Below, piece by piece: positions 20,046 through 38,536 of a stretch of DNA of 40,013 nt; position 1 is the first letter of the stretch; the number at the start of each line of letters is the position of its first letter. The translations under genes were made by a program, and so were the position numbers. The notes beneath the pieces are model-generated. The model searched no databases, was not told the DNA's origin, and was given only the letters and a program-made list of their open reading frames with translations. The stretch lies in the NCBI GenBank assembly GCA_964592945.1, contig CAZQGK010000001.1, forward strand, positions 9,224 to 49,236. The letters run 5' to 3'. This DNA comes from an uncultured Candidatus Saccharibacteria bacterium (GTDB lineage Bacteria > Patescibacteriota > Minisyncoccia > Phycocordibacterales > UBA2100).

Positions 20046-20270
20046 CTACTCCAAAAAACCTCCGCAACTAACAAAGAGTATCTTATTCGGATTTTGTTTC
20101 GGCGCTTGTTGCACGCCGCTATCGGGCGAGCACTCATTGTCCGAAGCAAGTTTCGGCGTATTGTTGTGAGCGAAAAATTGCTGTACGTATATATATGTGT
20201 ACAAGAGCGCGGCAAACACGAAGGCCGCAGCGACGATGACCATTTGGCGGATAGTGATGCGCTCTCGCAT
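20046..20270 (-). CDS. Tail peptide C1: 74-aa N-terminally membrane-anchored peptide ending ...NPNKILFVSCGGFLE
   Basis: It has a basic N-terminus (MRERITIRQ) and a TM helix (MVIVAAAFVFAALLYTYIYV). The C-terminal SCGGF is shared with three other small ORFs but encoded by different codons. TACAAT lies 6 nt upstream of the ATG. Confidence 0.75.
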   Translation of the reverse strand: MRERITIRQMVIVAAAFVFAALLYTYIYVQQFFAHNNTPKLASDNECSPDSGVQQAPKQNPNKILFVSCGGFLE

Positions 20271-20276
20271 AATTTC

Positions 20277-20282
20277 ATTGTA
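20277..20282 (-). promoter_or_regulatory. -10 box (TACAAT) 6 nt from the C1 ATG; TTGCCC lies 16 nt further upstream
   Basis: The reverse strand reads TTGCCC-16 nt-TACAAT-gaaatt-ATG, with no SD. The spacer contains the 20288..20303 inverted repeat. Confidence 0.4.
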
Positions 20283-20324
20283 GCGCGTGCCCGTACGCGG
20301 GCAAGCCGCGGCTATATTACCGCC

Positions 20325-22031
20325 ATGTTACAATGGGGCACCATGTGTTTTTCTCCGAAGGAGCTTCCGAGCGGAGCCGTTTTGGGAGGATGTCTACTGG
20401 CCGTTCTTGCTCTTGCTCTGCTGGGAGTGTTCATATTCCGGGAGTGGACGACCTCTTTCTTCAGCTCCGCATTGCAACAAGCTAACGTCATCGAAACCGT
20501 AAGCGTACAAGGGGGCACCTACCATGTCGATCGCGGCTTCGTCTCAACATCAGATGCCGTTCCGGTCCAACCCGCACGAAAGATCGGGGCGCTCCGCCTT
20601 GCATACGCACTTACGCTTGCGAAGCGTTCGCCTCTCATCGCCCTTGCGGGAACGGATGCGGACAAACTGGATACGGCAACCACGCAATTGGAGGCGGTGC
20701 AGAATGCATTGGCCGATTTACAGAGCGAAGAAAACGACAAGAGACTGATCCGGAATACGCTCTTTCCCATACGTTGGCTCCGGGCGCTTGCGGATACCGA
20801 ACGGGCCCGGCAGGCATTTCTCACGAACAGTTCCGATCAAAATGAGACGAGGTATCGTGCGGCGCTTGAAGCTGCCGCCGTGGCTTTTGAGAGCGATTTG
20901 AGCCGGTACCGTGCGGCATTTGCGCAGACTGCGATTCCTTCCCAACGGATTGCCGTGATGAGCGGGATCGAAACCACGGAGAGCATTCTGCATGCGATAG
21001 ATGAGGCCGGGGCAGGCATGCAGGCAACGGGGTCGCGTCTGCGCAATCGAGAACGTTGCCTTTCGGGTCTCTTTTGGTTTTGTGGTGAGCGGGATCTCGC
21101 CATTCCTGCACTGGACGAACCACGCGACGTGCGATCGGGTGCGGCATCTCGCCTTCCCGCGGACGTGAACGATATGCTCGATCTATACGCCGCGGTCTTT
21201 GGGTTACCGGCGCTGAAGAACCGGACGGTATTTGCCATCAGTGACGATTCTTGTATCGAACCGAGACCGCTACCGCATTATTTCGTGATACCTCCGGACA
21301 ATGGAGCTGGTGTCCCCGACCTAGTACCCCCGATGCTATTTGTGGGAGACACGACTATTAACCGCATTGTAGAGCCGTCTGCGAATTGGAGAACGTTTAA
21401 TCAATATCTTTTGGATCTTGGCGTGAAATATACGCCGGGGAATCCGATCAGCTATTATCAATGTCCTGAGCTAAGAGGTCTTCAGGGGCATATCTTCGGT
21501 ATCGACGCCGTGTTCGAGGAAATACAAAAGGATCCGTCGTGGGCGAAACGCTTCGGTCATGTTTCCGTGGCCGGCACGCGCGTGATATCAGATGGTGACA
21601 TCACCGCATTCCTTGCCTCGACGACGCGCGCCGCGTCCGGGAACGGATCACCGTCGTCCGAGCGCGATCTTCTGACCGAGTTATCACTCATGGTCAAGAA
21701 TCGAAGTGCGGCGCTTGATCGGCTGGTCGCAGCAATTGCAACCATAGATCGTACAATTCCCGGACTGAAACAGTACGGCATTCACGAGGGATTTGACGCG
21801 AACTACCTTCTGATCGCTAAAAGCGGTTTTCCACAACTTTTTGAGACCCAAAATCCGTCGGTCGTCGGCACTACATCAATCTCAGTATTTGTCGGTAAGG
21901 GCTCTCCTCGTCCTTCGAACTCGCTGTGGTATTCACAATTGCCGGAGGAAGAAAAAATCACGGCCATGTCCGACTTGAAGGTGTGGGTCCGGCTGCATCG
22001 AGAATTCCTTAAGTCCGGCGTTGCTCCGTGA
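20325..22031 (+). CDS. D-family protein D1: membrane-anchored, uncharacterised, four conserved Cys
   Basis: The start is set at ATG 20325, with TATATT 6 nt upstream. The track start 20094 overlaps the divergent C1 gene. It has a TM helix (AVLGGCLLAVLALALLGVFIF) and blocks shared with D2 and D3: ALRLAYA..A.RSPL.AL.GTD, C-x2-G-x4-C and Y.C.E. Confidence 0.7.
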   Translation: MLQWGTMCFSPKELPSGAVLGGCLLAVLALALLGVFIFREWTTSFFSSALQQANVIETVSVQGGTYHVDRGFVSTSDAVPVQPARKIGALRLAYALTLAKRSPLIALAGTDADKLDTATTQLEAVQNALADLQSEENDKRLIRNTLFPIRWLRALADTERARQAFLTNSSDQNETRYRAALEAAAVAFESDLSRYRAAFAQTAIPSQRIAVMSGIETTESILHAIDEAGAGMQATGSRLRNRERCLSGLFWFCGERDLAIPALDEPRDVRSGAASRLPADVNDMLDLYAAVFGLPALKNRTVFAISDDSCIEPRPLPHYFVIPPDNGAGVPDLVPPMLFVGDTTINRIVEPSANWRTFNQYLLDLGVKYTPGNPISYYQCPELRGLQGHIFGIDAVFEEIQKDPSWAKRFGHVSVAGTRVISDGDITAFLASTTRAASGNGSPSSERDLLTELSLMVKNRSAALDRLVAAIATIDRTIPGLKQYGIHEGFDANYLLIAKSGFPQLFETQNPSVVGTTSISVFVGKGSPRPSNSLWYSQLPEEEKITAMSDLKVWVRLHREFLKSGVAP

Positions 22032-22047
22032 CCCGTACGTGGAGATG

Positions 22048-22425
22048 TCACACAGGAAATTCGCGTCTCTCAACCTCGCGAACCCTCTCCGGCTTAAAGT
22101 ACTTCTTAGCCAGCACAAAAAAACGCTCCGCTTTGGCGTCGTTATTTTCTGAATAATGACAATAAAACAGACGGATATGTGCGGTGCCGGCTTCGGGCCA
22201 TGTGTGTATGTCAACGCTGGATTCTCCAATTATCACAGAGACCGTCACTCCGCCTGCACCCTCAAACTTTTTACTCGCGACCGGCTCATATACCGTAAAG
22301 CCGGCCTTGCGCACGAGTCCTGCAAACGCAGCGCCTAGATCTGCATCGGTCAGTGCTGCGACATTCGCACAGTCCTGAAAAATCCAGCCGCGATCGATGC
22401 TTATGGTATCGTTCATGGTCCGCAA
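22048..22425 (-). CDS. speH: S-adenosylmethionine decarboxylase proenzyme (small, pyruvoyl-dependent type)
   Basis: 125 aa with VIIGESSVDIHTWPE, which is the self-cleavage Glu-Ser site and the HTWPE motif. Confidence 0.85.
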   Translation of the reverse strand: MRTMNDTISIDRGWIFQDCANVAALTDADLGAAFAGLVRKAGFTVYEPVASKKFEGAGGVTVSVIIGESSVDIHTWPEAGTAHIRLFYCHYSENNDAKAERFFVLAKKYFKPERVREVERREFPV

Positions 22426-22428
22426 ATC

Positions 22429-24093
22429 TTACGGAGTACTAATGATGCTCGGTAATCCGCGTTCGTATTCTAACTGTCGGACCGCATTAAATCTATACTG
22501 TGGCTGAAGGAATTGAGAAACAGCGGGATTGCGGTCAGTGGATATGATGTCCTTATGAGTGTCAAAATACCGGCGCTCAAACGGCGGCATGTGGAACAGT
22601 CCGGCATGCCTGGAGGATTCGTACCAATGATCCCCCTCAACAACTTTCTTCCTGCGAACGACGCGCGGATCGTATGCATCACTTGCAATGACCGATGCTT
22701 GGATTGCATCTGTCGTGCTACGTATTCCTCCCGCATATTCATACCGGTAGGTATATTTGAACACAGATCGTATGGTGGCTAAAATTACCGTCTGCGCCTC
22801 CAGATACTGGTTATTTGGTATGTGCGGGACAAGTATTCCGCCGGGAGAGAGGCGTGTCTTAGCAAGTTCATAAAACTCCTTCGACCACATACTGCTAAGC
22901 TGTGCCCTGCGCGGAGCAGGCACGTCGACGATTATTATGTCGAACTGTTGGTCGGTTTGTTGAAGGAACGTACGCCCATCCATGAAATGGCGTTCAATAC
23001 GTGGGTCATCAAAAACGCCGCCATTCATCTTTTGCAGATATTTTCGCGAAAGATTCACAAGCTTCTCGTCTATGTCCACATGCACAATGTGCGGGATGCC
23101 GGCGCGAACCAGTTGATACAGCGCTCCCCCGTCACCTCCACCGATGACCAATACTCGTTGCGCATCCGGATGTGCATTCACGGCCGGGAGGACGGAAAAT
23201 TCATGGTATGCGCGCGAAACCGTTCCTACGAATAACGTATCATCGAAATACAGGGAGATCCCGAAGGTGGGGTGGTCTATTATGGCGCTGTATTGAAATG
23301 GGGAGTGCGCGGCCTCGATCGGATTATAACGTGTTGCTAAACGAAAGAACGAGAGACTCGCTTCGGTAAAATACTTCTGAGAGCCGAAAAGAAGCGTACT
23401 TCCTCCAATTAATACCGCGATAGAAAGCACTATCCCGAATAGCTTTTTCTTCTCAACAAGGGAAAAAATGAGGAATACCGTGGCCGCATTTAGAATACCG
23501 CCTGCAATCATTGTCCCTTCGAGTCCAAGGAGCGGAATGAAGAAAATGCCTGCAGTTAACGCTCCGAGTACACCACCTAGGGTGTCCCCGGCATACACAA
23601 CACCGACATGCGTCCCGGAATGGGTCTCGCCTCGCTCCAACCATTGAACGGCCACCGGCAACTCGATACCCATGAGAAACGAGGGAAAAAGCAACGCCCA
23701 TGAAATGAACAGCGACTTCATCGCGAAAGTGGAAGAGTATATCCCGAGTGCCTCGGCAAGCGCAAAAAAAGAAAAGCCGTATAGCGCTATAAGCGCCTCG
23801 GCAACAACAAACAACAGAAGGAGGGGGTACTTGCGTCGCGTATACCAGGCGCCGGCAAATGCACCGAGCCCCAATCCTCCCATGAACCCTCCGATGACCA
23901 TGCCGGCGGAAAATTCAGTAATACCGACGAGGGTGGTTACAAATGAAAGCAACACCACTTCGTACATAATGCTCGCCATCCCGGTAGCAAAGAGGATAAG
24001 AAATAACAATGTGAGCGCGGTCGAATAGCCGACGTACGTGCCTGCATATGAACGAATCAACTGCAACATAATGGTCCGGATATTAATGTGCAT
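22429..24093 (-). CDS. speE: Polytopic membrane domain fused to a spermidine/polyamine synthase domain
   Basis: 554 aa. The N-terminal ~220 aa are multi-TM. The C-terminal part has VLVIGGGDGGALYQLV, VDIDEKLV and DIIIVDVPAP (aminopropyltransferase fold). The start at 24093 overlaps the E2 stop by 11 nt; ATG 24069 is an alternative. Confidence 0.8.
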   Translation of the reverse strand: MHINIRTIMLQLIRSYAGTYVGYSTALTLLFLILFATGMASIMYEVVLLSFVTTLVGITEFSAGMVIGGFMGGLGLGAFAGAWYTRRKYPLLLLFVVAEALIALYGFSFFALAEALGIYSSTFAMKSLFISWALLFPSFLMGIELPVAVQWLERGETHSGTHVGVVYAGDTLGGVLGALTAGIFFIPLLGLEGTMIAGGILNAATVFLIFSLVEKKKLFGIVLSIAVLIGGSTLLFGSQKYFTEASLSFFRLATRYNPIEAAHSPFQYSAIIDHPTFGISLYFDDTLFVGTVSRAYHEFSVLPAVNAHPDAQRVLVIGGGDGGALYQLVRAGIPHIVHVDIDEKLVNLSRKYLQKMNGGVFDDPRIERHFMDGRTFLQQTDQQFDIIIVDVPAPRRAQLSSMWSKEFYELAKTRLSPGGILVPHIPNNQYLEAQTVILATIRSVFKYTYRYEYAGGIRSTTDAIQASVIASDAYDPRVVRRKKVVEGDHWYESSRHAGLFHMPPFERRYFDTHKDIISTDRNPAVSQFLQPQYRFNAVRQLEYERGLPSIISTP

Positions 24094-25441
24094 AGGATTC
24101 TGTATGGCCCGCAGCCTTCCGGGCCTCTTCGCGAATACGGCCGCTTTGCATGATGAGCTCCAACTGTTCCGCGGTAGTATCTTCGAGTATCGCGTCCGCC
24201 GATCGATATAGTATGCCTTCCGGCTTTACCCTGCCGGAACCGAGGAAATTGGGCTTTTCAGCAATCCTCCACACGCTCTCATTAAACGGTAGATAGTAGA
24301 TGCTCGGATGAGTGCGCATGAGAACCCAGTACCATGCAAGGTGGGACGTGAACGTACCGTGCCGCATATGATCTTTCGCGTTCTCAAGGACGGTCTGGTG
24401 GTCCTCTACGCATGCTCCGAGAAGCAGATCGATCAGGCTCGATTTTTGCGCCCGCAGTGCTTGCGCGTCGAGCGACGGCCTGCGATGGATATCAACGATC
24501 GTCGAAACATCCGCCCAATATGTCTGATCGCGCATCGTATAAAAGTTTGTTGACGGCTGATACCAATATGGTATCCCCTTGCCTCTGAGATGCGCCAGTG
24601 AGCTCAGTTTTGTTGTATCAGGACCGATTTTCTGGAAGAGAAATAGATCAAGCGCAGAGATTTTGAGGCTCACGGTGCCGCTCCGATCATCGCGCACGAT
24701 ATAGAGCATGAACGGGTGTGTGGTCGGCGTACCGTCAAACTGTGATAGTTCGTATGCAAAAGGTCCGTGCTTCTCGAGGATGGTGCTGCGTCGAAATGGT
24801 AAGGAATGAGTGAGCTCGAGTTCGTGAAGGTGGGCGTAGCGTGCGGGGGCAGTACACTGCCGGTATTTCAGATCTGTTTCCGCAGTAGTTGGCTTTGGGA
24901 TCCGGGAACATTCCTTCCCCGCGGCAATCTCTTGGCGTGCTATAAGCTCGACACGCAGCCGATCTGCATTCGCACGAAGCGTCCGTAACGTGTGGTTAAT
25001 ATCCGAAAGAGTACTCGTGTTGCCATGCATATCCTGCAGCGGAGCCGCTTCTGCATTCTTGCGGTCAAGGCTGAGAAGTATGCGGTGCATCCGCGTGAAG
25101 CGCGCGACATCGGCACCATACGCGCTGCACGTAACATCCCATGCTTCAAGCAGATCACGCTGTGAGCGCCCGGTCGGGTTCGCGAGAAAGTGCCGGCGGC
25201 AGCGCTCGCTCTCGATGAACGCCCGAATGAACGACAGGGGAATGGCGTACCGCGTAAGCGGGTACCGCGTAAGGAACAAGCGTCGCATGAGCGAATGACC
25301 GCCGACTGCCTCCTCGAATTCACGGGCGACCGACTGAATGGCATCAAGCGCCGTCTCGGCGCGCTCAAGGTCCATGCCCACAGCGGCAAAGAGAGGGTCG
25401 TTTCGCACCAGATCAACAAATGTTTCCGTAACGCCTTTCAT
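24083..25441 (-). CDS. E-family protein E2 (paralogue of E1)
   Basis: The start is set at ATG 25441 (MKGVTETFVDLVRNDPLFAAVG), which aligns with the E1 N-terminus. TATACT lies 6 nt upstream. The track start 25465 adds 8 aa. It is collinear with E1 to the C-terminus (TTAEQLELIMQSGRIREEAR versus TTPEEMDLIMQGGRIRKEAR). Confidence 0.7.
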   Translation of the reverse strand: MKGVTETFVDLVRNDPLFAAVGMDLERAETALDAIQSVAREFEEAVGGHSLMRRLFLTRYPLTRYAIPLSFIRAFIESERCRRHFLANPTGRSQRDLLEAWDVTCSAYGADVARFTRMHRILLSLDRKNAEAAPLQDMHGNTSTLSDINHTLRTLRANADRLRVELIARQEIAAGKECSRIPKPTTAETDLKYRQCTAPARYAHLHELELTHSLPFRRSTILEKHGPFAYELSQFDGTPTTHPFMLYIVRDDRSGTVSLKISALDLFLFQKIGPDTTKLSSLAHLRGKGIPYWYQPSTNFYTMRDQTYWADVSTIVDIHRRPSLDAQALRAQKSSLIDLLLGACVEDHQTVLENAKDHMRHGTFTSHLAWYWVLMRTHPSIYYLPFNESVWRIAEKPNFLGSGRVKPEGILYRSADAILEDTTAEQLELIMQSGRIREEARKAAGHTESYAH

Positions 25442-25542
25442 GGCGATAGTATACCCTTTTGCCAAGGCAAAACGATTAGTATAGTATCAGCCACTGGTTC
25501 AAATCGTGGCGGATATCCGTCACAAGTACAAGGAGAAGGACA

Positions 25543-26535
25543 TTGAAAATACTTGCAAGAGTGGCTGCTGCGGCCGTGTTGGTCGTTGCATCTCTTGGGT
25601 TCGCGCAAGCGTATCCCGATGGGCCGGTGCGCGTTATAGTCCCGACGCAGGCCGGTAACCCGGCTGATATCGTGACGAGGATCTTGTGCGACAAGTTGAG
25701 TGAGATCCTCGGGGCTCGATTCTTCGTCGAAAACCGCCCCGGAGCATTCGGCGAGATCGCGTTCCGTGACCTCGTGCGGGCAGCTCCGGACGGTTACACG
25801 TTGGGGCACTCCGGCAACGGCCCGATAACTATCCTACCCGCTGCGCGAGTTGCAGCGGATATGCCGAAAGACAAGATCCCGTACGACCCGATACGGGATC
25901 TCGAGCCCATCAACTTCACCGCTTACGACCAATTCGTCTTTGCGGTGCCGAGGAGTAGTCCATTTCGCTCCTCGAAAGAGCTGGTGGACTATGCCCGGGC
26001 ACATCCCGATGAGCTCGCGATAGCCGCGGGTACACCGAGCGGCAGGTTGGCGGTTGCCTTCCTCAACGCAATCCCTGGCGTGCGCGTCAGGGAAATCGGA
26101 TCCGGACAAGGAGAGGAAACAGCGTACCGGGATATCCGTAGCGGCGAGAAGATTGACGGTATCTTCTCCACGGTGCTCGGGGCTCTTCCGAAAGAAGACA
26201 TCGTGCGACCGCTTGCCCTCGTCGGCGGGACCAGAACCCCACTGTTTCCAAACGTGCCAACGATGGTCGAAGAAGGATTCGAGACCTTCGACGCGAGAAT
26301 GGAAGCCTGGTACGCCTTCACCGGGCCGAAGGGACTTCCAAAGCCCATCATCGAGAAGCTGAGTAAGGCGATCGATACGGCCGTGCGCGATCCGCGCGTC
26401 CAAGAAAGGTTGGCGAAAATCGGCATCACGACTCGCCATTCGACAACCGCGGTTCTCAGCGATGAGATTGCGCGGCAGTACAAGGGACTGGCGGCGTTTA
26501 TGAAGGAGAACGGGGTCAAGTTGCTCGGTAAGTAG
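25543..26535 (+). CDS. Bug/TctC-family solute-binding protein (TctC-2), orphan
   Basis: 330 aa with a TTG start after AGGAGAAGGA. The signal peptide ends FAQA and is followed by YPDGPVRVIVPTQAGNPADIVTRIL. Confidence 0.85.
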   Translation: MKILARVAAAAVLVVASLGFAQAYPDGPVRVIVPTQAGNPADIVTRILCDKLSEILGARFFVENRPGAFGEIAFRDLVRAAPDGYTLGHSGNGPITILPAARVAADMPKDKIPYDPIRDLEPINFTAYDQFVFAVPRSSPFRSSKELVDYARAHPDELAIAAGTPSGRLAVAFLNAIPGVRVREIGSGQGEETAYRDIRSGEKIDGIFSTVLGALPKEDIVRPLALVGGTRTPLFPNVPTMVEEGFETFDARMEAWYAFTGPKGLPKPIIEKLSKAIDTAVRDPRVQERLAKIGITTRHSTTAVLSDEIARQYKGLAAFMKENGVKLLGK

Positions 26536-26562
26536 TCACCGTATTCTCCACCGACATGAAAA

Positions 26563-26591: not shown

Positions 26592-26605
26592 ATTTTTACT
26601 GCGCT

Positions 26606-29777: not shown

Positions 29778-29830
29778 TTTCATCGGCTTGTTCCCAAGCC
29801 AAAATATTTGTGGACACAAGGGAGGAATCG

Positions 29831-30858: not shown

Positions 30859-31095
30859 TCACTCAATAAATCCCCCACAGCTGATGAAAAGCATTTTGTT
30901 CGGGTTTTCTTGCTGAGCCTGAAACGATGGGTCGGTGCATGCTCTTCCAATGGCAAAGGAGAGCGTCTGGTATACCGTACGGGTAACAAACCCGTGAACG
31001 TAGAGATATGCGCCCAGAATGACGCCAAAGAGAGCCGCGGCAAACAAAACTGGGTATGTCCGCAGGTAGTGCAACACACCGTCATCGTACCACAA
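30859..31095 (-). CDS. Tail peptide C2: membrane-anchored peptide ending ...NPNKMLFISCGGFIE
   Basis: The track start is TTG 31095 (78 aa). GTG 31077, with TACGAT 6 nt upstream, is an alternative, so the start is uncertain. It has a TM helix (VLFAAALFGVILGAYLYV), and the last 15 residues are near-identical to C1. Confidence 0.7.
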   Translation of the reverse strand: MWYDDGVLHYLRTYPVLFAAALFGVILGAYLYVHGFVTRTVYQTLSFAIGRACTDPSFQAQQENPNKMLFISCGGFIE

Positions 31096-31132: not shown

Positions 31133-32797
31133 ATGGCCCTCCGACCAACACCTCCTTCTCAGTTCTTTACCCCAGTGATAGGCATTGTTTGTGCATTGTT
31201 ACTTGCGTCCGGATGGTATATGTATACCTCAAAACATGACCGGACCGCTCACGCTTTTTTCTTGGAGTCCCTGACCAAGGCCGGCATACCGGCCTCGGAT
31301 AACGACTCTCTTTCGGCACTTAAACTTGCGTATGCAAAGGCACTCGCGGGGCGGTCTCCGCTTATGGCCCTCGCCGGAACCGATCCGGAGACGATGTCAC
31401 TGTCCGTGGACAAACTGGAGCAGTCGGTCGTCCGACTTTCTACCTTGCAGAAAGACCGTAACGCGGATGAACTCGTACGCTCATCGCTATATCCGATCGC
31501 ATTTCTGCGCTCCATGGCGAACCTTGAAGCAGAACGCCTTCGATTTGTTTCGTCGGGAAGCGACACGGATGAACTCGCATACGAGACCGCCCAGTACGCG
31601 GCGATACGCGCATATAAAGACGATCTGCAAAGGTTCAGACGTGCATTTTTGCGCATAGTACCCGCTGACACCGCAGAGTTTACCAACGACTCAACAGTCA
31701 TAAGCCGGGACGGCATTATACGGGCCCTTGATGAACTCGGAAACAAAATCTCGAAAACCGAAGGAGCGCTACGACAAAGAAACCGCTGTCTTGCGGGATT
31801 CATATCCGCCTGCGACAGGAACAGCCTTACTCTTCCTATTGTTCCGGTTGTCAAGGATTTTCCGGTACATGCCGAAGACATTTCCCGCGCAGAGAAGATT
31901 CGTTCAATGTTGGGCGCCGCGTTCAACAACCCAACGATCGGGAACGCGCCGATCATTCAACTTTCCCGCAGCGCTTGCACGGAGTCTATCGGACTTCCGC
32001 CGCTTTTTGTTGTGCACACAGCCCAACCGTCGCCGACAAATGATGCAACGGGTTTGCGTGTGTCTTTTGTGGGGGACCTCAAGCTATTAAAAAGCGACCT
32101 CTATAATGAGGTGCCATTTTTCAAGTACTTTGCCGATCATGGCATCAGCTACGTGTATACGCCGATGTCGTTCTACACGTGTTCCGAAACAGGCTACGAT
32201 TTTGAGCGTGTTCTTGGCGTACGCTCGGTCAGTGAGTTTTCAAATGAGTTCAACGTGAGCCAGTATGTGAGCGGCACGACGAGCGCCGCTTTGCGGAAAC
32301 TTGAGCGGGTGCTCGCGCCGACAAATAGCATCTTGCGCGAATCGGACGCAATGCAATATCTCGCTGAAACGCAGGCGCTTATAACGAGCGGTGCACTCCC
32401 CCGACCGCCTGCCGGCGCCATTGAGTACCTATCGCTACAAATAGCAAACAGGACATCAAAGTTTGATTTCATCCTCGAAAATATTGCAGTCATTGAGGAT
32501 CACAACGTCAGGCTGGCACACAGAAATATACCGGTCGCGCTGAGTGCGCAGTACCTGTTCTTTACCCGCAGTGCGTTCCCACTTCTATTTATGAGTAGTA
32601 ATACTTCCGTCAGTGGACGATACGACCGGCCTTTCAAGGAAAATAACGCGGCGTTTAAAGAGCAAGCGTACACGCTTTATTCGTCGCTCCCTGATACGGA
32701 ATCAACACGCAACAAGCTTATACGCGAAATACGCATGTATACCAATCTTCATACTTCTCCTGAAAGCGTCCCCACGGAAGAGATACTCAATAGATGA
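31133..32797 (+). CDS. D-family protein D2: membrane-anchored, uncharacterised, four conserved Cys
   Basis: 554 aa with a TM helix (VIGIVCALLLASGWYMY). Motifs are ALKLAYAKALAGRSPLMALAGTD, RCLAGFISAC, SACTES and FYTCSE. It is divergent from C2 across a 37-nt gap. Confidence 0.75.
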   Translation: MALRPTPPSQFFTPVIGIVCALLLASGWYMYTSKHDRTAHAFFLESLTKAGIPASDNDSLSALKLAYAKALAGRSPLMALAGTDPETMSLSVDKLEQSVVRLSTLQKDRNADELVRSSLYPIAFLRSMANLEAERLRFVSSGSDTDELAYETAQYAAIRAYKDDLQRFRRAFLRIVPADTAEFTNDSTVISRDGIIRALDELGNKISKTEGALRQRNRCLAGFISACDRNSLTLPIVPVVKDFPVHAEDISRAEKIRSMLGAAFNNPTIGNAPIIQLSRSACTESIGLPPLFVVHTAQPSPTNDATGLRVSFVGDLKLLKSDLYNEVPFFKYFADHGISYVYTPMSFYTCSETGYDFERVLGVRSVSEFSNEFNVSQYVSGTTSAALRKLERVLAPTNSILRESDAMQYLAETQALITSGALPRPPAGAIEYLSLQIANRTSKFDFILENIAVIEDHNVRLAHRNIPVALSAQYLFFTRSAFPLLFMSSNTSVSGRYDRPFKENNAAFKEQAYTLYSSLPDTESTRNKLIREIRMYTNLHTSPESVPTEEILNR

Positions 32798-32822
32798 GAG
32801 GGACGTGCACACTGCACGTTCG

Positions 32823-32851
32823 TTGACAGCTGCATGAGCTGCCTCTACGAT
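32823..32851 (+). promoter_or_regulatory. Sigma70-like promoter of TctC-4 (TTGACA, 17 nt, TACGAT)
   Basis: A perfect -35 ttgaca at 32823..32828, a 17-nt spacer, and tacgat at 32846..32851. A 7-3-7 inverted repeat lies immediately upstream at 32803..32819. Confidence 0.45.
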
Positions 32852-32908
32852 GCGCGCAGGCACGTACAAATATCTGTTCCGACGTGCTGAATCAGGGAGA
32901 ACGAACGC

Positions 32909-33883
32909 ATGAAGCTACGACCTGTGGCCGCGGCGCTCATCGCGCTCGCGTGCCTTGCTGCCTCTCCGGCGAAAGCCGCGGAGGAATACCCGTGCCAAGG
33001 AACGGTTCGTTTCGTCGTCGGACTCCCGGCGGGATCCACGACGGACGCCATCGTGCGTCAGATAGCGGGTGAGATGGCACCGCTTCTGAAGCGGACGATT
33101 ATCGTTGAGAACATCGTGGGCGCCGACGGTGCCCTCGGTGCGCGAAACGCGCTCGCAAGTGCAGCCGACGGGTGCAACTACCTGGCGGCGACCAACGGCA
33201 TGCTCGGCATCGAACAGAGGCTGGGGCCGCAAGGCTTCGACCTCGAAAAAGCGGTGCCGGTCGGCATGTTCGCCCGCAACTACCAAGTGCTCGTAGTTCA
33301 CCCGGCGGTTGCCGCGAATTTGGGCGAGTTGCTCGCGTACGTGAAAGCGAATCCCGGGACGCAATTCGCGCGTTCCGCGACTTCAAGTCTCATCGCTTGC
33401 GCCTACTTCGCAAAGAAGGCGGGGCTTGCGATGAAAGACATCTTCTACAAAGGCGATCCGCTGCTGATGCAGGACGTAGTTGCCGGACGTGTGCCCGTGG
33501 CATGCCCGTTCCTGTATCCGGTCCGCGGACAAATCGAGGCCGGTGCATTGCGGGCGCTCGCCATCCTTGGGCCCGGGCCGTTCAGCGAGTTGCCGACCGT
33601 CCCGGCGATTACCAATGTGCTTCCGGGCTCCGAAAAGCTCGGGGCGCTCGAGGGCCGCGGTTTCTTCGTGTGTCCTCCAGGATGTCCGGAGGCGGCCGTC
33701 GAGATGTTCTCGCGATATCTGCGGGAAATTCTCGCAAAGCCTGCAACGGTTACCCGCTTCCGCGAAAGCAGCGCGGAGGCGGTCTACATGACGCCGGGAG
33801 CAACGGCGTTGTACATCAAGTCGCAAAAAGCCCTTTTTACCGAAGTGGTGCGGGAAATCGGGCTGGAGTTCAAACCAAAATGA
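32909..33883 (+). CDS. Bug/TctC-family solute-binding protein (TctC-4), orphan
   Basis: 324 aa with SD AGGGAG upstream. The signal peptide ends PAKA and is followed by AEEYPCQGTVRFVVGLPAGSTTDAIVRQI and ...VENIVGADG. Confidence 0.8.
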   Translation: MKLRPVAAALIALACLAASPAKAAEEYPCQGTVRFVVGLPAGSTTDAIVRQIAGEMAPLLKRTIIVENIVGADGALGARNALASAADGCNYLAATNGMLGIEQRLGPQGFDLEKAVPVGMFARNYQVLVVHPAVAANLGELLAYVKANPGTQFARSATSSLIACAYFAKKAGLAMKDIFYKGDPLLMQDVVAGRVPVACPFLYPVRGQIEAGALRALAILGPGPFSELPTVPAITNVLPGSEKLGALEGRGFFVCPPGCPEAAVEMFSRYLREILAKPATVTRFRESSAEAVYMTPGATALYIKSQKALFTEVVREIGLEFKPK

Positions 33884-33897
33884 CCACGCTGGATTTG

Positions 33898-33929
33898 CCG
33901 GCGGCGCCCCTGGGTGCCGCCGGTTTCTT
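33898..33929 (+). terminator. Rho-independent terminator of TctC-4
   Basis: 11-bp stem (ccggcggcgcc / ggtgccgccgg, one G-U pair), cctg loop, then TTTCTTACTT. Confidence 0.55.
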
Positions 33930-33968
33930 ACTTGGAAGAATGTCCGCCGTGCAATACCATACGTTGAA

Positions 33969-34700
33969 ATGAGCAAAGTAGTCACAGCGCCGGAGATGTT
34001 TGTCGAATTCCTCTCTTCTGTTGAAAAACATATCCCAGAAATGGAGTGTCGTGTTTTCCCCTCCTCTTTCGATGCCAACGACCCAAATCTGCGGGCAATT
34101 CCGCGACCGGTGGATTGGCAATGGACATCGTGTGAGCGGGCGCTCCGGCACGCTAATTCCAAAGGCGTGATGATGCGGCTACCGACATTTTGGCAAATCG
34201 GATTACCGCTTCATGCTGCATGTCGTGCGGTGGGGATTCCCATTTTCGTGAACGAGCCGGAAAATATTCCCGTCGGCGCCATGGCCCTCAAAACAGGCGG
34301 CATTGATACGGTCGTCACGGAAAATCGCGACGCGGCCGCATTTGCGGAGTACCTCGTCGCGCAAAAACTGCCCATGCCGCGATTGGGAATACTCGTGCAC
34401 CGAATTGAAGACGCATGGGACGTGTCCCGCGTAGTTCTCGATACGTGGAGTCTCGTCGCGCAAGAGGTGCACGCATTTCCCGGAGTACCCGTACTCGAAC
34501 AGTGCGCCGCGCTTTCAGCAGAGAAGGCCTCGCGATTCCATCTCTCCGATTCCTATCTCTGGGAAATTACCGGCGACGAGACATTGATAACGGGCAAGAG
34601 TGGCGACCCGATACCGCTTTCCCGATACCGGCTTCCCTGTTCCCTCAAAAAATCAGGGGAATGCTCTTGCGGAAAACCCGTATTCGAGCGACGCCTATGA
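33969..34700 (+). CDS. F-family protein F1: N-domain-only ligase paralogue with no P-loop, second type
   Basis: 243 aa. The pattern EVHAFPGVPVLEQCAAL...FHLSDSYLWEI...LSRYRL...GECSCGK follows the PaaK N-domain and stops at the CxCG motif. There is no TSGTTG-type P-loop. The stop overlaps the A5 start (ATGA). Confidence 0.7.
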   Translation: MSKVVTAPEMFVEFLSSVEKHIPEMECRVFPSSFDANDPNLRAIPRPVDWQWTSCERALRHANSKGVMMRLPTFWQIGLPLHAACRAVGIPIFVNEPENIPVGAMALKTGGIDTVVTENRDAAAFAEYLVAQKLPMPRLGILVHRIEDAWDVSRVVLDTWSLVAQEVHAFPGVPVLEQCAALSAEKASRFHLSDSYLWEITGDETLITGKSGDPIPLSRYRLPCSLKKSGECSCGKPVFERRL

Positions 34701-35962
34701 TGACGCTTCAACAACTGCATGACGTGGTCGAGCTCTGCACGAAAAGCGGTACTTCCCCTTTTTACCGGAAGCTCTACGGGATGAGTGCGGACGAACCGCC
34801 GAGAAATATCACGACGTGGGACGACTGGCTCTCACTCCCCGTGTTCGGCAAAGAGCATCTGACGGGACAGACGCTTCCGGGCCGCGCCTTTCCACCGCTC
34901 CGGAACATCGACGCCGTACTCGCCTCCTCCGGTACATCCGGCAATCCTCCCGTATACAGCCCGTGGACGCTCAATGACGGCTACGGGTACCGCCTGCAGT
35001 ATCACGATTTCAAAAAGGCGACACTTTCCTCGATGCCGACACCGTTTCAGCAGGATTGGATACTGAGCAAACACCAGCAGAAAGGACGACTGATAATTTT
35101 AGACCCGCGACGGCACAAAGCATCGCTCCATCTCGCGCAGGTCATGGGTGTCGACAGTATGTTCCTTATTCTCCACCATCTGCCCGTCATTGCGGAGGAA
35201 ATGGTGCGCCTCGGCATGAACGAAAACATACGCTTCATTGAAATTGCGGGAGAGACGTGCTCGCGCTCACTATTTCTCTATATACAAAAGACGTTCCCGA
35301 ATGCGGTCGTCTGCCCCATTTACGGCTCGACCGACGTTGAGACAAGTCCTATCGGGATACCGTGCAGGCCAATTACCGGTGAAGAGCCGCTCGAGGTGTA
35401 CCACGAAGGAGAGCGCACTCACCTCGAGATAATCGACAGCGGAACAGGCGCGGTCCTGCCGGTAAAAAAAGGAGCCGAGGGCGATCTTGTCATCACTGCA
35501 TACGCCGGCGAGACAGCTACATTCCCGCTTCTACGATACAAAATCGGAGACACCGTTCGTGTTGTAGAAGAGAAATGTGAAAAACACGGGACGTGGTCGT
35601 TCACCGTTCTCGGACGCACGGAGATGGACTTTCTGAAAGTCCCCGGCGGGATCCTGCGGGCGGACTCGGTTGAGCGCACGCTTCGGGCGTTTAGCAACGT
35701 CGTATCGGACCGGTTCGAATTGCACCGGTACGAGCGCAGTACCGCGGAGGGCCTTAAGGTTGAGGTGGTGCTACATATCGAGGCGGCACGGAACACTGAC
35801 ATGGAGGCACTGGCGGGTAAGATTTCAAGCGCGTTGCATGTGGGCGCTTCGTACACGTATAACGACGGTGTAAAAGAAGGTTTGTATCTCCCCCTCATTT
35901 GTGTTCCTCTCTCGGAATCGCCGTCGAGAACGGGAAAACGCGTACGAATGTTCCGACATTAA
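34697..35962 (+). CDS. Full-length PaaK/F390-synthetase-like adenylate-forming ligase A5
   Basis: 421 aa from ATG 34697; the track start 34415 lies inside F1. Motifs are FYRKLYG...WDDWLSLPVFGKEHL, SSGTSGNPP (P-loop), YGSTDVETSP, YKIGDTVRV, GRTEMDFLKVPGG and a C-terminal GKRVR. Confidence 0.8.
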   Translation: MMTLQQLHDVVELCTKSGTSPFYRKLYGMSADEPPRNITTWDDWLSLPVFGKEHLTGQTLPGRAFPPLRNIDAVLASSGTSGNPPVYSPWTLNDGYGYRLQYHDFKKATLSSMPTPFQQDWILSKHQQKGRLIILDPRRHKASLHLAQVMGVDSMFLILHHLPVIAEEMVRLGMNENIRFIEIAGETCSRSLFLYIQKTFPNAVVCPIYGSTDVETSPIGIPCRPITGEEPLEVYHEGERTHLEIIDSGTGAVLPVKKGAEGDLVITAYAGETATFPLLRYKIGDTVRVVEEKCEKHGTWSFTVLGRTEMDFLKVPGGILRADSVERTLRAFSNVVSDRFELHRYERSTAEGLKVEVVLHIEAARNTDMEALAGKISSALHVGASYTYNDGVKEGLYLPLICVPLSESPSRTGKRVRMFRH

Positions 35963-35985
35963 ACGTAGTTCTGTACCGCCCCGCT

Positions 35986-36013
35986 TTGACAACACCTTGG
36001 AAGCCGCTACAAT
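35986..36013 (+). promoter_or_regulatory. Promoter of C3 (TTGACA, 16 nt, TACAAT) with the -10 box 7 nt from the ATG
   Basis: ttgaca at 35986..35991, a 16-nt spacer, and tacaat at 36008..36013, followed by cggagct and ATG 36021. This predicts a leaderless or near-leaderless mRNA. Confidence 0.55.
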
Positions 36014-36020
36014 CGGAGCT

Positions 36021-36272
36021 ATGCACAGGCTATCTCTTTCCGGGGTACGTCTTGTTTTGGTTGGTATTGCGGCGTTCGTTCTGGGAGTTATAGGTTTCTT
36101 TTCGTATACAGGTACGTCGCCGTCCTTCCAGAAACTATCCTGCAGCGTGCGCGACGCACTTACGAGCGTAAATATATTCCGCGATTCATCTCCTATCGCG
36201 TCTGCCGGATGTGAGAACAAAACCGGCGAGGATGGCGAGATATACTACGTAAGCTGTGGTGGCTTCTTCTGA
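36021..36272 (+). CDS. Tail peptide C3: 83-aa membrane-anchored peptide ending ...GEIYYVSCGGFF
   Basis: ATG 36021 lies within track ORF 35901..36272. It has a basic N-terminus and a TM helix (LVLVGIAAFVLGVIGFF). The C-terminal VSCGGFF is identical to C4. Confidence 0.7.
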   Translation: MHRLSLSGVRLVLVGIAAFVLGVIGFFSYTGTSPSFQKLSCSVRDALTSVNIFRDSSPIASAGCENKTGEDGEIYYVSCGGFF

Positions 36273-37002
36273 TAGGCGCACAACGCCGGAAATGCTGATT
36301 GCGGAGCTCTCCGCAATTGAGCCGCGCATTCCGGAAATGGAGTGCCGCATTTTCCCATCCTCGTTCAATCCAAAGGACACTGATCTGCGCGCCTTTCCGC
36401 GGGCGATACATTGGCGATGGACTTCGTGTGAGCGCATGCTTCGATTCTTCGGTGCACAGGCGGTCATGACGCGAGTCCCGAACTTTTGGCAGCTTGAGTC
36501 GCTCGTTCACGCGTGTTGCCGGAATATCGGTGCGCCGCTTTTTACAAACGAACCGGAGAACCTGGCCTTGGGCGCGGCGGCTATCGTTTCTGCAAACGTC
36601 AACGCGATAATCAGCGAAGCGTCAGAGACCGCTCCATTCGTATCGTTTCTTCTTGAGCGGGATGTGCCGCTACCCGCGCTGTGGCTTCTCATCCATAAAG
36701 CGGACGCGCGCGAATGGAGTGTCCCTCCTTCGCTTATACAAAATGGAATTACCGTAGCGCAAGAGGTCCACCTATTTCCCGGGGTCCCAATTCTCCATCA
36801 ATGCCCGGCTCTCGCGAGCGACAAAAAACCCCTATTCCATGTGTCTGATGAGTACGAGTGGGAGATGTTGGAAAGCGAGACGCTTATTACGAGCGCCGGC
36901 GGCGACCCGCTTCCACTACACCGGCTGCTCCTGCCCATTTCTATCCATGCCGCCGGGGAATGCGCGTGCGGAAAAACAATTGTTCAAAAGCGCACCGTAT
37001 GA
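36256..37002 (+). CDS. F-family protein F2 (paralogue of F1)
   Basis: 248 aa from GTG 36256, which overlaps the last codons of C3; ATG 36292 is an alternative. It is collinear with F1 (IPEMECRIFPSSF, EVHLFPGVPILHQCPAL, GECACGK). The stop overlaps the A6 start (ATGA). Confidence 0.65.
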   Translation: MVASSDRRTTPEMLIAELSAIEPRIPEMECRIFPSSFNPKDTDLRAFPRAIHWRWTSCERMLRFFGAQAVMTRVPNFWQLESLVHACCRNIGAPLFTNEPENLALGAAAIVSANVNAIISEASETAPFVSFLLERDVPLPALWLLIHKADAREWSVPPSLIQNGITVAQEVHLFPGVPILHQCPALASDKKPLFHVSDEYEWEMLESETLITSAGGDPLPLHRLLLPISIHAAGECACGKTIVQKRTV

Positions 37003-38252
37003 ACCTCGAAGCCCTCAGTTCCCTCGTTACCCGCGCAACGGCCCCGGGCCGTTTCTACCGCCGCTTGTACGGCATGAAGGAAGGTGATGCGCCGCTTTCA
37101 ATCAATTCATGGGAGGAGTGGAAAACGCTGCCGCTCCTTACGAAAAGCGACCTGCTCAATGAGCCGCTTTCTGAGCGATCGTTCTTGCCAATCCGCGACG
37201 TTGACTATCTGACATCAACCTCCGGCACGACGGGGACGCTCCCTTTATTCAGTCCTCGTACCCAACTGCTCGAATATGAGTTCCGAACGGAATTTTACGA
37301 TGCCGCGGGACCGGTATTTTCATCCAAACTAGTTCCACACCAGCAGGAACAATTCCTCTCCGCGCGCAATCTCTGGCCGCGTGTTGTCGTCATAGACCCG
37401 CGCAACCCCGAAAGCTCCGTACGCCTCGCGCGCGCGGCCGGAGTCGACGCCATTTTTGCCTTCCTCTCTCACATTCCGCTCGTTGCCGGGCATATGGTGC
37501 GGGAAAGCATTGCAGAGAACATCCGGTTTATCGAGGTTGCAGGCGAGACCTGCTCGCGGGCGCAATTTGAATATATGCACAGGACATTCCCGAACGCGGT
37601 CATTATCTCAACCTATGGATTGAGCGAAGTGGAAAACTCTCCAGTCGGCATTCCCTGCCGCCCCATGACTGCCGGGAATCCGCTCCCTGTGTACCATGCA
37701 AAAGATGGCGTCTATTTAGAACTCCTCGATACCAAAACGGGTACAGTGCTCGAACCGGAAGCGGGCGTTGAGGGAGAATTGGTCATCACCGCATATCGTG
37801 GCGAACCGGCGGCATTCCCGACTCTCCGGTATAAGAGCGGCGACACCGTGCGCGTTGTTGACGAACACTGCACCGCTCATGGCTCATGGTCATTCACTGT
37901 CCTCGGGCGCTCCGACATTGATTTTGTGAAGATCCCCGGCGGCATGCTCAAAGTCGACGAAATTGGACGCACTCTTCGCGCCCTGAACGATGTGGTCACG
38001 GACAATTTTGTTCTGCATCTTCGAAACGCCGCTGACGGAGCACGGACACGGGCAATACTGCATGTCGAGCCGCATGCGGCGGTTGATCTCGCTGTTTTAG
38101 CCGGCCGTATCGCCATTGAATTGCGTGTCTCGCCCACTTCTAGCTATGCCGACGGCGTCGCACAAGGTCTCTACGAACCGCTGATATGCCAACTCCTCGA
38201 CAAAGCACGAGGCGACATATATAAGCAAAAGAGCATCATCCTCGAGCCGTAG
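36999..38252 (+). CDS. Full-length PaaK/F390-synthetase-like adenylate-forming ligase A6
   Basis: 417 aa from ATG 36999; the track start 36858 lies inside F2. Motifs are FYRRLYG...WEEWKTLPLLTKSDL, TSTSGTTGTLP (P-loop), YGLSEVENSP, YKSGDTVRV and GRSDIDFVKIPGG. Confidence 0.8.
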   Translation: MNLEALSSLVTRATAPGRFYRRLYGMKEGDAPLSINSWEEWKTLPLLTKSDLLNEPLSERSFLPIRDVDYLTSTSGTTGTLPLFSPRTQLLEYEFRTEFYDAAGPVFSSKLVPHQQEQFLSARNLWPRVVVIDPRNPESSVRLARAAGVDAIFAFLSHIPLVAGHMVRESIAENIRFIEVAGETCSRAQFEYMHRTFPNAVIISTYGLSEVENSPVGIPCRPMTAGNPLPVYHAKDGVYLELLDTKTGTVLEPEAGVEGELVITAYRGEPAAFPTLRYKSGDTVRVVDEHCTAHGSWSFTVLGRSDIDFVKIPGGMLKVDEIGRTLRALNDVVTDNFVLHLRNAADGARTRAILHVEPHAAVDLAVLAGRIAIELRVSPTSSYADGVAQGLYEPLICQLLDKARGDIYKQKSIILEP

Positions 38253-38284
38253 GCATGCGGCTCCCATGTCCCGCTGCTACCCCG

Positions 38285-38293
38285 TGGTAAAAT
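38285..38293 (+). promoter_or_regulatory. Extended -10 element (TGgTAAAAT) 6 nt from the C4 ATG
   Basis: tggtaaaat at 38285..38293, followed by caccgt and ATG 38300, with no SD. Confidence 0.4.
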
Positions 38294-38299
38294 CACCGT

Positions 38300-38536
38300 A
38301 TGGTCGGACATCCTACAGCTCGTACTGTGCGATACGCGGCGCTTGGGGTCGTCTCGTGCATATTGACCATCATCGGCCTGCAGACCCTCACCCCGCGCTC
38401 GGCGACATTGCAAAGGATTCTTCACGTAAGCACGTCGGGGGACGGGGTCTTCGCCGACAGTGGTTCCGCCTGCATCGTTGCAAAGAAGAGCTTGAAGAAT
38501 GAGGTTTTCTTCGTGAGTTGCGGAGGGTTCTTCTAG
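38300..38536 (+). CDS. Tail peptide C4: 78-aa membrane-anchored peptide ending ...NEVFFVSCGGFF
   Basis: It has a basic N-terminus, a TM helix (LGVVSCILTIIGL) and the C-terminal VSCGGFF. D3 starts 27 nt downstream. Confidence 0.7.
   Translation: MVGHPTARTVRYAALGVVSCILTIIGLQTLTPRSATLQRILHVSTSGDGVFADSGSACIVAKKSLKNEVFFVSCGGFF

Follow-up and report, generated by a model that had tools for sequence, protein, structure and literature searches.

The Patescibacteria (candidate phyla radiation, CPR) account for a large share of bacterial diversity and are host-attached organisms with tiny genomes rich in unannotated genes. We analysed a 40,013 nt stretch (the window) of contig CAZQGK010000001.1, which derives from one such organism and has a G+C content of 55%, with particular regard to four small open reading frames (ORFs), C1 to C4, whose products carry an S-C-G-G-F tail. 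The initial annotation, made from the sequence, had listed exactly these four. A six-frame search found SCGGF four times in the window and nowhere but in these ORFs, always at the C-terminus of a product of 72–83 aa and followed by only one or two residues before the stop codon. The number of ORFs with terminal SCGGF expected per window, as judged from 1000 Markov-shuffled windows, was 0.003, against the four observed. The codons that the initial annotation had read for the motif were also exact, being agt-tgc-gga-ggt-ttt, agc-tgt-ggg-gga-ttt, agc-tgt-ggt-ggc-ttc and agt-tgc-gga-ggg-ttc, and are different in each copy.

The four genes fall into two types. C1 (20046–20270, minus strand) and C2 (30859–31077, minus strand) encode type-1 microproteins; C1 has 74 aa and its ORF ends in KILFVSCGGFLE (tail KQNPNKILFVSCGGFLE), and C2 has 72 aa from a GTG start and ends in KMLFISCGGFIE (tail ENPNKMLFISCGGFIE). 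The type-2 microproteins are C3 (36021–36272, plus strand; 83 aa), which ends in EIYYVSCGGFF (tail GEDGEIYYVSCGGFF), and C4 (38300–38536, plus strand; 78 aa), which ends in EVFFVSCGGFF (tail KNEVFFVSCGGFF). Each peptide has a single strongly hydrophobic segment after a short N-terminus, and a second cysteine 15–22 residues before the tail cysteine (14–21 intervening residues, the spacing previously given). The repeated protein families around these genes were defined by an all-against-all comparison of the window proteins: A and A′ are predicted ligases of the ANL superfamily, B and B′ their apparently degenerate relatives, and D and D2 a further pair of related families. C1 is the first cistron of a C1-A-B-sulfatase-sulfatase operon, lies 6 nt upstream of the ANL gene A and is divergent from the D gene that starts at 20343. 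C2 is divergent from the D gene at 31133, and an opposite-strand TctC gene stands between it and a set of A-B-A genes, a layout that is repeated in two other loci (L009 and L012). C3 is directly 3′ of A′ (34697–35962), and C4 is 3′ of the second A′ gene (36999–38252) and 28 nt 5′ of the D gene at 38564. It can be seen that each gene does lie beside an ANL or a D gene, as had been pointed out, with both kinds of neighbour for C1 and C4, D for C2 and an ANL gene for C3.

Each C gene also has its own −10 box, again as noted initially: the hexamers TACAAT (6 nt before the ATG of C1), TACGAT, TACAAT and TAAAAT precede the start codons of C1 to C4, respectively, by 6–7 nt, and the boxes of C genes often take the extended form TGGTAnnnT. 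The same arrangement was found in 15 of 27 family members from other loci, against a background of 2.5%, and a −10-like hexamer also precedes the starts of D at 20343 and D2 at 10081. Across the window, starts lying 6–8 nt after TACAAT, TATAAT or TAAAAT are seen at 20258–20270, 31065–31077, 36009–36021, 38288–38300, 20331–20343, 10081–10093 and 38552–38564; these first-cistron starts often have an upstream TGG and show no visible Shine-Dalgarno sequence. Such spacing points to leaderless transcripts, apparently the usual form for first cistrons of this genome. C2 and C3 are too long in the automatic ORF list (78 aa from TTG and 123 aa from GTG, respectively); counted from the starts behind the −10 boxes, they have 72 and 83 aa. 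Similar over-extensions are present at 20094–20342, 35901–36020, 34415–34696, 36858–36998 and 10082–10339, affecting D, C3, both A′ genes and D2, and an apparent opposite-strand overlap of the D ORF with C1 is resolved by taking the leaderless starts. The key gene of the module escapes standard gene callers: in the public gene calls C1 is unrecorded and C3 is recorded as the over-extended 123-aa protein, and no gene is called on the source contig at the position of C2 beside D.

Searching with a profile built from C1 to C4 brought up 19 proteins of 65–85 aa, nearly all with the same terminal tail. When 1.84 billion representative proteins were searched exhaustively with a hidden Markov model, at least 207 clusters (50% identity) passed E ≤ 1e-3, of which 58 also passed E ≤ 1e-10; nearly every one is 57–114 aa long and is matched up to its last residue. 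When 154 sequences were aligned on the tail cysteine, the resulting logo was K(−11) N(−9) P N K x L F [IV] S C G G F [LFI] [EDQ or stop]. F(−3) was present in 152 of the 154, and in 152 of the 154 the chain ended 2–3 residues after CGG, so that the free carboxylate always lies 4–5 residues from the cysteine. Type-1 tails, including those of C1 and C2, have the form C-x(6-12)-K-x-NPNK-x-LF[IV]SCGGF[LI][ED], and type-2 tails, including those of C3 and C4, the form C-(acidic stretch)-[VI][YF]F[VI]SCGG[FI][FY]. The initial annotation had described the linker between helix and motif, of median length 41 residues, as poorly conserved. This is true of the linker in general but not of its end, since in type 1 the nine residues before the cysteine (N-P-N-K-x-L-F-[IV]-S) are nearly as conserved as SCGGF itself.

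It had also been argued that the constraint acts on the peptide and not on the DNA, and this proved to be the case. The closest orthologue pairs gave dN/dS values of 0.09, 0.18 and 0.22, indicating purifying selection with no sign of neutral evolution, and in 27 genes every synonymous codon occurs at the invariant S-C-G-G-F positions, with four different codons for Gly, two for Cys and six for Ser/Thr. When one genome per GTDB species was scanned, the C family had 13 matches, every one in a metagenome-assembled genome (MAG) of the Patescibacteria labelled as Kaiserbacteria, Parcubacteria, Giovannonibacteria, Nomurabacteria, Minisyncoccia or ‘Saccharibacteria’. No model in Pfam (even at E ≤ 10), NCBIfam or PADLOC matched the family, a full-text literature search for ‘SCGGF’ gave nothing relevant, and nor did literature searches on phenylacetate-CoA ligases, microproteins and adenylate-forming enzymes of Patescibacteria; one on CoA and ACP in CPR gave no useful information. 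These results support the initial reading, in which no known family was recognised. A role in anti-phage defence was considered and rejected, as PADLOC returned no match. We conclude that the four ORFs are genuine genes of an undescribed, Patescibacteria-specific microprotein family. Its architecture, as read from the sequences, is a short N-terminus, one predicted membrane helix, a flexible linker of about 40 residues and an invariant C-terminal tail.

The AlphaFold model of C1 has a helix at residues 7–34 with pLDDT above 90, in keeping with the one hydrophobic helix per peptide originally described; the tail, modelled from a 149-sequence alignment, has a pLDDT of 50–60 and no regular structure. 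Disordered when alone, it looks like a binding segment, and the model suggests that it probably folds only on a partner. Exactly two cysteines follow the helix in 147 of 161 C proteins. The tail cysteine is present in 161 of 161, although this set was chosen by a motif that itself requires it, and the upstream cysteine is missing in seven. Because the upstream cysteine can be lost from members that keep the tail cysteine (subject to that selection), the tail cysteine looks to do more than form a disulfide. The distribution of Lys and Arg around the helix is too weakly biased to decide topology, both for C (1.9 before the helix vs 1.6 after) and for D (2.0 vs 1.6). The tail may be extracytoplasmic, an outer location that is hinted at indirectly by the cysteine pattern of D described below.

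The ligase genes occur in pairs. In the C1 operon, A (18924–20039, minus strand) encodes a PaaK-like ANL protein of 371 aa with the P-loop TSGSTG, the motifs YRTGD and GRxxxDYxKxxG and the C-terminal Lys, and without the PaaK N-terminal microdomain; its Shine-Dalgarno sequence (GGAG) lies inside the last codons of C1. The gene that follows, B (18172–18921, minus strand), encodes a 249-aa degenerate ANL N-domain that lacks the P-loop, keeps the PaaK-like N-terminal FYRxxWG...LP motif and has a terminal YxTGD-like motif. An A-B-A operon on the minus strand (A, 28475–29584; B, 27721–28470; A, 26606–27724) belongs with C2. A further minus-strand pair (11642–13491, comprising B at 12754–13491 and A at 11642–12751) has no adjacent C gene and is followed by the genes for a protein with 12 transmembrane (TM) segments and for D2; a fifth, degenerate C gene was sought upstream of this pair and none was found. 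On the plus strand, B′ (33969–34700; 243 aa) encodes a degenerate ANL N-domain of a second subtype, ending in CxCGK, and is followed by A′ (34697–35962), a PaaK-like ANL protein of about 420 aa that has the N-terminal microdomain. A second such pair comprises B′ at 36256–37002 and A′ at 36999–38252, the latter matching the NCBIfam PaaK-type model at about 1e-16 and Pfam AMP-binding at 5e-5. In all, the window holds four copies of A (about 370 aa), two of A′ (about 420 aa), three of B (about 245 aa) and two of B′ (about 243 aa).

A joint profile of A and A′ matched phenylacetate-CoA ligase structures in the PDB at 7.9e-16 and DltA at 2e-5, and the NCBIfam PaaK-type models match at about 1e-16, which is far below their trusted cut-offs. 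The P-loop [ST]SG[ST]TG, YxTGD, the hinge GRxxDxxKxxG and the C-terminal catalytic Lys are present in all six A/A′ paralogs in the alignment. By sequence, A and A′ are assigned to the PaaK-like branch of the ANL superfamily, and the A ligases look catalytically competent. The N-domain of A and the B protein are colinear (hhalign E 6.8e-5 over 212 columns), but B has HxxxGxFLSEW where ANL enzymes have TSGTTG, and it ends at the YxTGD-like motif with the whole C-terminal domain absent, P-loop and C-terminal domain both being needed for adenylation. B and B′ match nothing in Pfam, NCBIfam or the PDB, and it is only the profile-profile comparison with A that ties B to the ANL enzymes; B is homologous to these and probably inactive. 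Comparison with what we take to be the sequence of Escherichia coli PaaK placed its N-terminal microdomain (FYRxxYG...LP) in exactly one partner of each pair, in B and not A, and in A′ and not B′. This complementary pattern fits, and suggests, that the active and dead partners form obligate heterodimers.

The D proteins, of which the window encodes three (20343–22031, 31133–32797 and 38564–40013, all plus strand), have one N-terminal TM helix followed by about 520 residues. The first is divergent from C1, with a leaderless start after TACAAT, the second is divergent from C2, and the third lies 3′ of C4 and runs off the end of the window. The last 55 aa of this third protein (39850–40013) cease to align with the other D proteins and resemble a left-handed beta-helix hexapeptide repeat (weak Pfam LbH match, E 0.0012), which may reflect a fusion, a frameshift or an assembly join at the edge of the window. 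D2 is homologous to D over its entire length and has no TM helix; its genes are found at 24083–25465 (minus strand), in an operon with a speE-like gene and speD, and at 8681–10081 (minus strand), at the end of the B-A-12TM-D2 operon. All 20 D proteins compared have exactly four cysteines after the helix, at four invariant columns, whereas 12 D2 proteins have no cysteine at three of these columns and a single one at the fourth (Leu, Ile and Thr being commonest), with 0–5 cysteines elsewhere. Four invariant cysteines without counterparts in D2 are the signature of an outside domain set against a cytoplasmic paralog, and the pattern suggests that D has a disulfide-bonded extracytoplasmic domain and that D2 is cytoplasmic. 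The few residues invariant across D and D2 are Arg, Tyr, Glu and Pro; they include no catalytic nucleophile and no Ser or His. Searches of the PDB by phmmer and with a 32-sequence profile, and of Pfam with every member, were all empty, and a poor AlphaFold model of D (seven sequences, pLDDT 49.6) gave a best Foldseek E-value of 0.27 against the PDB. On sequence grounds D and D2 appear to be an orphan family.

To see which genes accompany C elsewhere, we compared a first set of 17 loci with 27 C genes, and a set extended with metagenome contigs to 32 non-redundant loci with 43 C genes, in which all ORFs were clustered de novo. Among the 27 C genes, those of type 1 are usually the first cistron and most have A or B 7–135 nt downstream on the same strand; in three type-1 cases an opposite-strand TctC gene is inserted before the ligases, as at C2. 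Eight of ten type-2 genes lie 43–131 nt 3′ of A′, in the order B′-A′-C, often with D next. The only recurrent neighbour families of C in the 32 loci were A/B (69 members in 26 loci, at a median of 781 nt from C), D (27 members, 19 loci, 56 nt), B′ (13 members, 11 loci, 91 nt), D2 (12 members, 11 loci, 2953 nt) and TctC (11 members, 8 loci, 3004 nt). No peptidase, exporter, radical-SAM enzyme, membrane acyltransferase or other polytopic protein was recurrent near C in these loci.

The subtype of the tail strictly tracks the subfamily of the ligase. Tails of the form NPNK..LF[IV]SCGGF[LI][ED] occur with A/B and are encoded upstream of it, and those of the form acidic-[VI][YF]F[VI]SCGG[FI][FY] occur with B′/A′ and are encoded downstream of B′-A′. 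We also attempted to match D subtypes to tail types and found no correlation, the D sequences not clustering by adjacent tail. Since the tail follows the ligase and not D, its type-specific residues are more likely to be read by the ligase pair. The relatives that the initial annotation had proposed to look for thus exist, in at least 207 clusters and with conserved neighbours, and the link that it drew between the peptides and the enzymes of the island is upheld by the recurrence of the ANL/pseudo-ANL pair and D in the 32 loci and by the co-variation of tail and ligase. We conclude that this is a CPR-restricted, multi-copy module, centred on a Cys-tailed microprotein, that is undescribed in the databases and literature searched.

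The rest of the island contains four TctC-family (tripartite tricarboxylate) binding proteins with cleavable signal peptides (14127–15068, 25543–26535, 29810–30799 and 32909–33883). There is no recognisable TctA or TctB in the window, and the TctC proteins have no obvious anchor in a cell without an outer membrane. The only transporter candidate for them is the 12-TM protein (10138–11607), which has no Pfam match; we also considered this protein as an MBOAT- or TctA-like transferase and rejected it, as no Pfam model matched at E ≤ 10 and it is found in only four loci. Two sulfatase-family genes with N-terminal helices (15146–18164, minus strand) complete the C1-A-B operon and are unusual cargo for a CPR genome. 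The minus-strand operon at 22048–25465 encodes D2, a spermidine-synthase-like protein fused to an 8-TM domain and S-adenosylmethionine decarboxylase (speD), and larger fused SpeE-like membrane proteins are found in related loci (751 aa in L019), which hints that polyamines are linked to the module. In one locus (L001) the module is flanked by a heme-oxygenase-like protein (PF14518; 9238–9864) and a class-III aminotransferase (14784–16172), which could hint at a link to small-molecule chemistry. Housekeeping genes, for GAPDH, transketolase, ribulose-phosphate epimerase, L25 and type IV pilin, flank the island, and the same flanks are seen in other MAGs. The pilin gene (6382–6843, minus strand; GFTLIELLVV, Pfam N_methyl) is just outside the island, between the pentose-phosphate genes and that for GAPDH. 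A 41-member Cys-rich family of about 370 aa, present in 18 loci (including L016 and L013) several kb from C and absent from the window, may represent surface proteins typical of these MAGs.

Taking these observations together, the best-supported reading is that C provides a substrate or carrier for the ligases. We propose, tentatively and with somewhat less than even confidence, that each tail serves as the dedicated substrate, or as the acyl acceptor, of its cognate ligase pair and is then presented to D. The pair would consist of an active PaaK-like ANL enzyme (A or A′) with a P-loop-less remnant (B or B′) as its non-catalytic partner, and would spend ATP in the cytoplasm on carboxylate or thiol chemistry at the tail. 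Two routes can be envisaged: the pair would adenylate the carboxylate at the end of the tail itself, with the cysteine 4–5 residues upstream capturing it as an intramolecular thioester, or it would load a small carboxylic acid onto the tail cysteine. The helix would hold the charged tail at the membrane, and D, probably on the outer face, would receive or process it. We favour self-adenylation with thioester capture, at lower confidence, because the spacing from cysteine to terminus is fixed and because the last residues match the ligase subfamily, A′, the more PaaK-like of the two, having tails with aromatic ends and A having tails with acidic or aliphatic ones. Loading of an external acid on the cysteine would be the more conventional ANL chemistry and is equally allowed. 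If D receives the tail outside the cell, the modification must precede export. The direct contact of tail and ligase, the reaction between them, the membrane side and the part played by D are what we infer here, and the one line of evidence for a substrate or carrier role is synteny.

Several points weigh against this proposal. The ligases would be cytoplasmic, while their D partner and probably the tail look extracytoplasmic; the four-Cys pattern of D points to a disulfide-bonded outside domain, and the two cysteines of most C proteins would likewise fit an outside disulfide rather than a free thiol, which would put the tail beyond the reach of ATP-dependent enzymes unless it were modified before export. 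The weak Lys/Arg bias across the C helix does not help, and one A-B pair in the window (11642–13491) has no C gene. Adjacency may mean only a shared pathway, as with dltX and dltA, and, to our knowledge, no ANL enzyme has a ribosomal peptide tail as its target. A more specific form of the proposal, which we consider improbable, is that of a single-use ‘charged tail’: the ANL pair would make the internal thioester, or an acyl-Cys, in the cytoplasm, the helix would carry the bond across the membrane and the ectodomain of D would use it, in an ATP-independent ligation or release on the surface of the episymbiotic CPR cell. With an acyl-Cys, the tail would be a genetically encoded substitute for the thiol of CoA or pantetheine.

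A potential explanation that would not need to invoke contact between ligase and tail is that C works on the outer face as a structural or docking subunit, and although we judge this unlikely it deserves the fullest hearing of the alternatives. The helix would be a signal anchor, the two cysteines would close a disulfide loop, and the C-terminal hydrophobic residues and carboxylate would plug into the D ectodomain or TctC. D is indeed the closest neighbour of C (of 20 D genes, 14 have a C gene no more than 110 nt away), and its four invariant cysteines without counterparts in cytoplasmic D2, the exactly two cysteines of most C members, the tail that is unstructured alone and keeps a strict distance to the C-terminus, and the invariant D/D2 residues without a catalytic nucleophile would all agree with docking, as would TctC paralogs with cleavable signal peptides and no obvious anchor, and small-residue motifs such as AA..F.A and GxxG in the C helices. 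However, docking accounts neither for the link of tail subtype to ANL subfamily rather than to D subtype, nor for the place of the C gene at the head of a ligase operon, nor for the invariance of Ser and Gly-Gly around the cysteine; furthermore, some members have lost the upstream cysteine and none the tail cysteine (which the selecting motif requires). It is distinctly improbable, in our view, that C is instead a precursor that is processed and released, either as a thiolactone joining Cys to residue +4, like an autoinducing peptide (AIP), or by lipoprotein-type processing at L-F-[IV]-S-C. C-G-G-F-F is Cys plus four residues, the ring size of staphylococcal AIPs, and type-1 tails add one acidic residue, as is found after the AgrD cleavage site; yet AgrB-like, peptidase, exporter and receptor kinase genes are not recurrent near C, and the core is invariant over the at least 207 clusters when signals usually diversify. 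As regards the lipobox, L-F-[IV]-S-C fits the PROSITE core [LIVMFWSTAG](2)-[LIVMFYSTAGCQ]-[AGS]-C, with L-F-[IV] at −4 to −2 in most tails and Ser or Gly at −1 in 143 of 154, and Gly-Gly after the cysteine is common in lipoproteins. We nevertheless rejected it. A lipobox closes the h-region of an N-terminal signal peptide and has no charge in the six positions before it, whereas the motif here is C-terminal, separated from the helix by a median of 41 residues, has charged residues at −6 (Lys in 100 of 154) and −10, is as invariant at +1 to +3 as at −4 to −1, and would leave a ‘mature protein’ of only 4–5 residues.

We give little credence to an acyl shuttle of the DltX type, in which the ANL enzyme would activate a small acid, a membrane transferase would put the acyl group on the tail cysteine at the outer face and D, anchored like DltD, would pass it to a surface polymer. 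The layout does parallel that of dltX-dltA, with a microprotein gene directly upstream of an ANL gene, a single helix that precedes an invariant hexapeptide at the C-terminus, and an outer protein anchored by its N-terminus, and DltA structures were among the PDB matches of the A profile; but MBOAT, AT3, carrier-protein and SGNH domains are all absent from the window, polytopic membrane proteins do not accompany C genes consistently, the motif has a cysteine and not the tyrosine of FxYxxF, and D has no invariant Ser or His. Finally, the failure of public gene callers to record many C genes, C1 and C2 included, is what would be expected of chance or non-functional ORFs, or of fragments of larger genes read through a stop, but chance is refuted by the shuffled windows, the number of clusters and the dN/dS values. 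Recoding or an alternative genetic code, by which the SCGGF ORFs would be the front of longer genes, was rejected because TAG and TGA stops are both used, long standard-code ORFs run throughout and downstream genes have their own starts with a ribosome-binding site or −10 box. These last explanations we regard as having practically no chance of being right.

About 30 kb of this genome holds four to six copies of one module, made up of a microprotein, a ligase pair in which one paralog is active and the other dead, and a membrane-anchored orphan protein, and its presence in Kaiserbacteria, Parcubacteria, Nomurabacteria and related MAGs argues for its clear importance in these bacteria. Should the tail prove to be the substrate of the ligase, this would be the first ANL enzyme known to act on a ribosomal peptide, and it could be a new way of bringing activated groups to the ATP-free cell surface. 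Even the conservative reading yields three new protein families, C, B and D/D2.

Among known systems, several that share a short motif with C could be set aside. Ubiquitin-like and sulfur carriers (ThiS/MoaD, Pup, UBact), which have Gly-Gly (or GGQ/GGE) as their last residues and an E1-like or PafA partner ligase, were rejected, as GG is followed by 2–3 residues in 152 of 154 tails and no tail fold is predicted; no ThiF/E1 or PafA/Dop domain is encoded in the window. Likewise, C-terminal sorting signals (LPXTG, PEP-CTERM, GlyGly-CTERM), which precede a TM helix and a basic tail and are served by a sortase, exosortase or rhombosortase, were rejected, since the helix of C is N-terminal and nothing follows the motif; the XrtW model gave one weak match to a single member (E 0.12), which is noise. 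PqqA, MftA and the TglA/PEARL scaffolds are ribosomal precursors with an invariant C-terminus, and C resembles them in being encoded by a small gene beside candidate modifying enzymes, in its conserved core and in the expectation of chemistry at a conserved C-terminus. Unlike these scaffolds, C has what appears to be a true membrane helix instead of a soluble leader, there are no radical-SAM, PEARL or peptidase genes, and the modifying enzyme would be an ANL protein, which is unprecedented in that class. More broadly, no maturase of ribosomally synthesised and post-translationally modified peptides (radical SAM, YcaO, LanM/B/C, ATP-grasp, lasso cyclase or PEARL) was found in the window or among recurrent neighbour clusters, and with no class-defining maturase and an invariant core we rejected a known precursor class of this kind.

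AgrD, the precursor of the staphylococcal autoinducing peptides, has like C an N-terminal membrane segment, a cysteine able to close a five-residue thiolactone with residue +4 and, as in type 1, an acidic residue after the ring. In contrast, the C tail ends at the ring where AgrD has a 14-residue recognition tail, so that ATP, through the ANL enzyme, and not peptide-bond cleavage, would supply the energy; the core is hypervariable in AgrD and invariant in C; and AgrB peptidase and AgrC/A genes were not found in the window or among the recurrent neighbours. LuxE, an acyl-protein synthetase that transfers an acyl group to a Cys in a flexible C-terminal tail, is a precedent for a peptide-Cys acceptor, and A and A′ are PaaK-like by profile with the adenylation and thioester-forming motifs kept. 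Here, unlike in LuxE, the acceptor cysteine would sit on a separate membrane-anchored microprotein and a truncated paralog without a P-loop accompanies the enzyme; the LuxE models of Pfam and NCBIfam did not match.

In layout, the nearest analogue of the module appears to be DltX with DltA. DltX, which belongs to the Dlt D-alanylation pathway, is a membrane microprotein with a C-terminal ‘acyl shuttle’ hexapeptide, F-x-Y-x-x-F, that contains an invariant Tyr, and its gene lies beside that of the ANL enzyme DltA (PMC12148441). Microproteins of this shuttle class span the membrane once and have an extracellular C-terminus. C is likewise a one-helix microprotein with an invariant C-terminal motif that has one nucleophilic residue, is encoded beside an ANL enzyme and would share its system with an N-anchored protein of the outer face, if D is located there as predicted. 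It differs from DltX in its S-C-G-G-F motif, in which the nucleophile would be Cys and not Tyr (type 1 has no conserved Tyr), in the linker of about 40 residues between helix and motif and in the lack of sequence homology. As for the rest of the Dlt system, no DltB (MBOAT), DltC carrier (PP-binding) or DltD/SGNH domain was found in the window when every sizeable ORF was searched against Pfam, and the ligase here is PaaK-like and paired with a dead paralog. Biochemistry could reduce the module to an unusual variant of an acyl shuttle or a scaffold peptide, but as it stands we rate it as lying outside every described kind of system.

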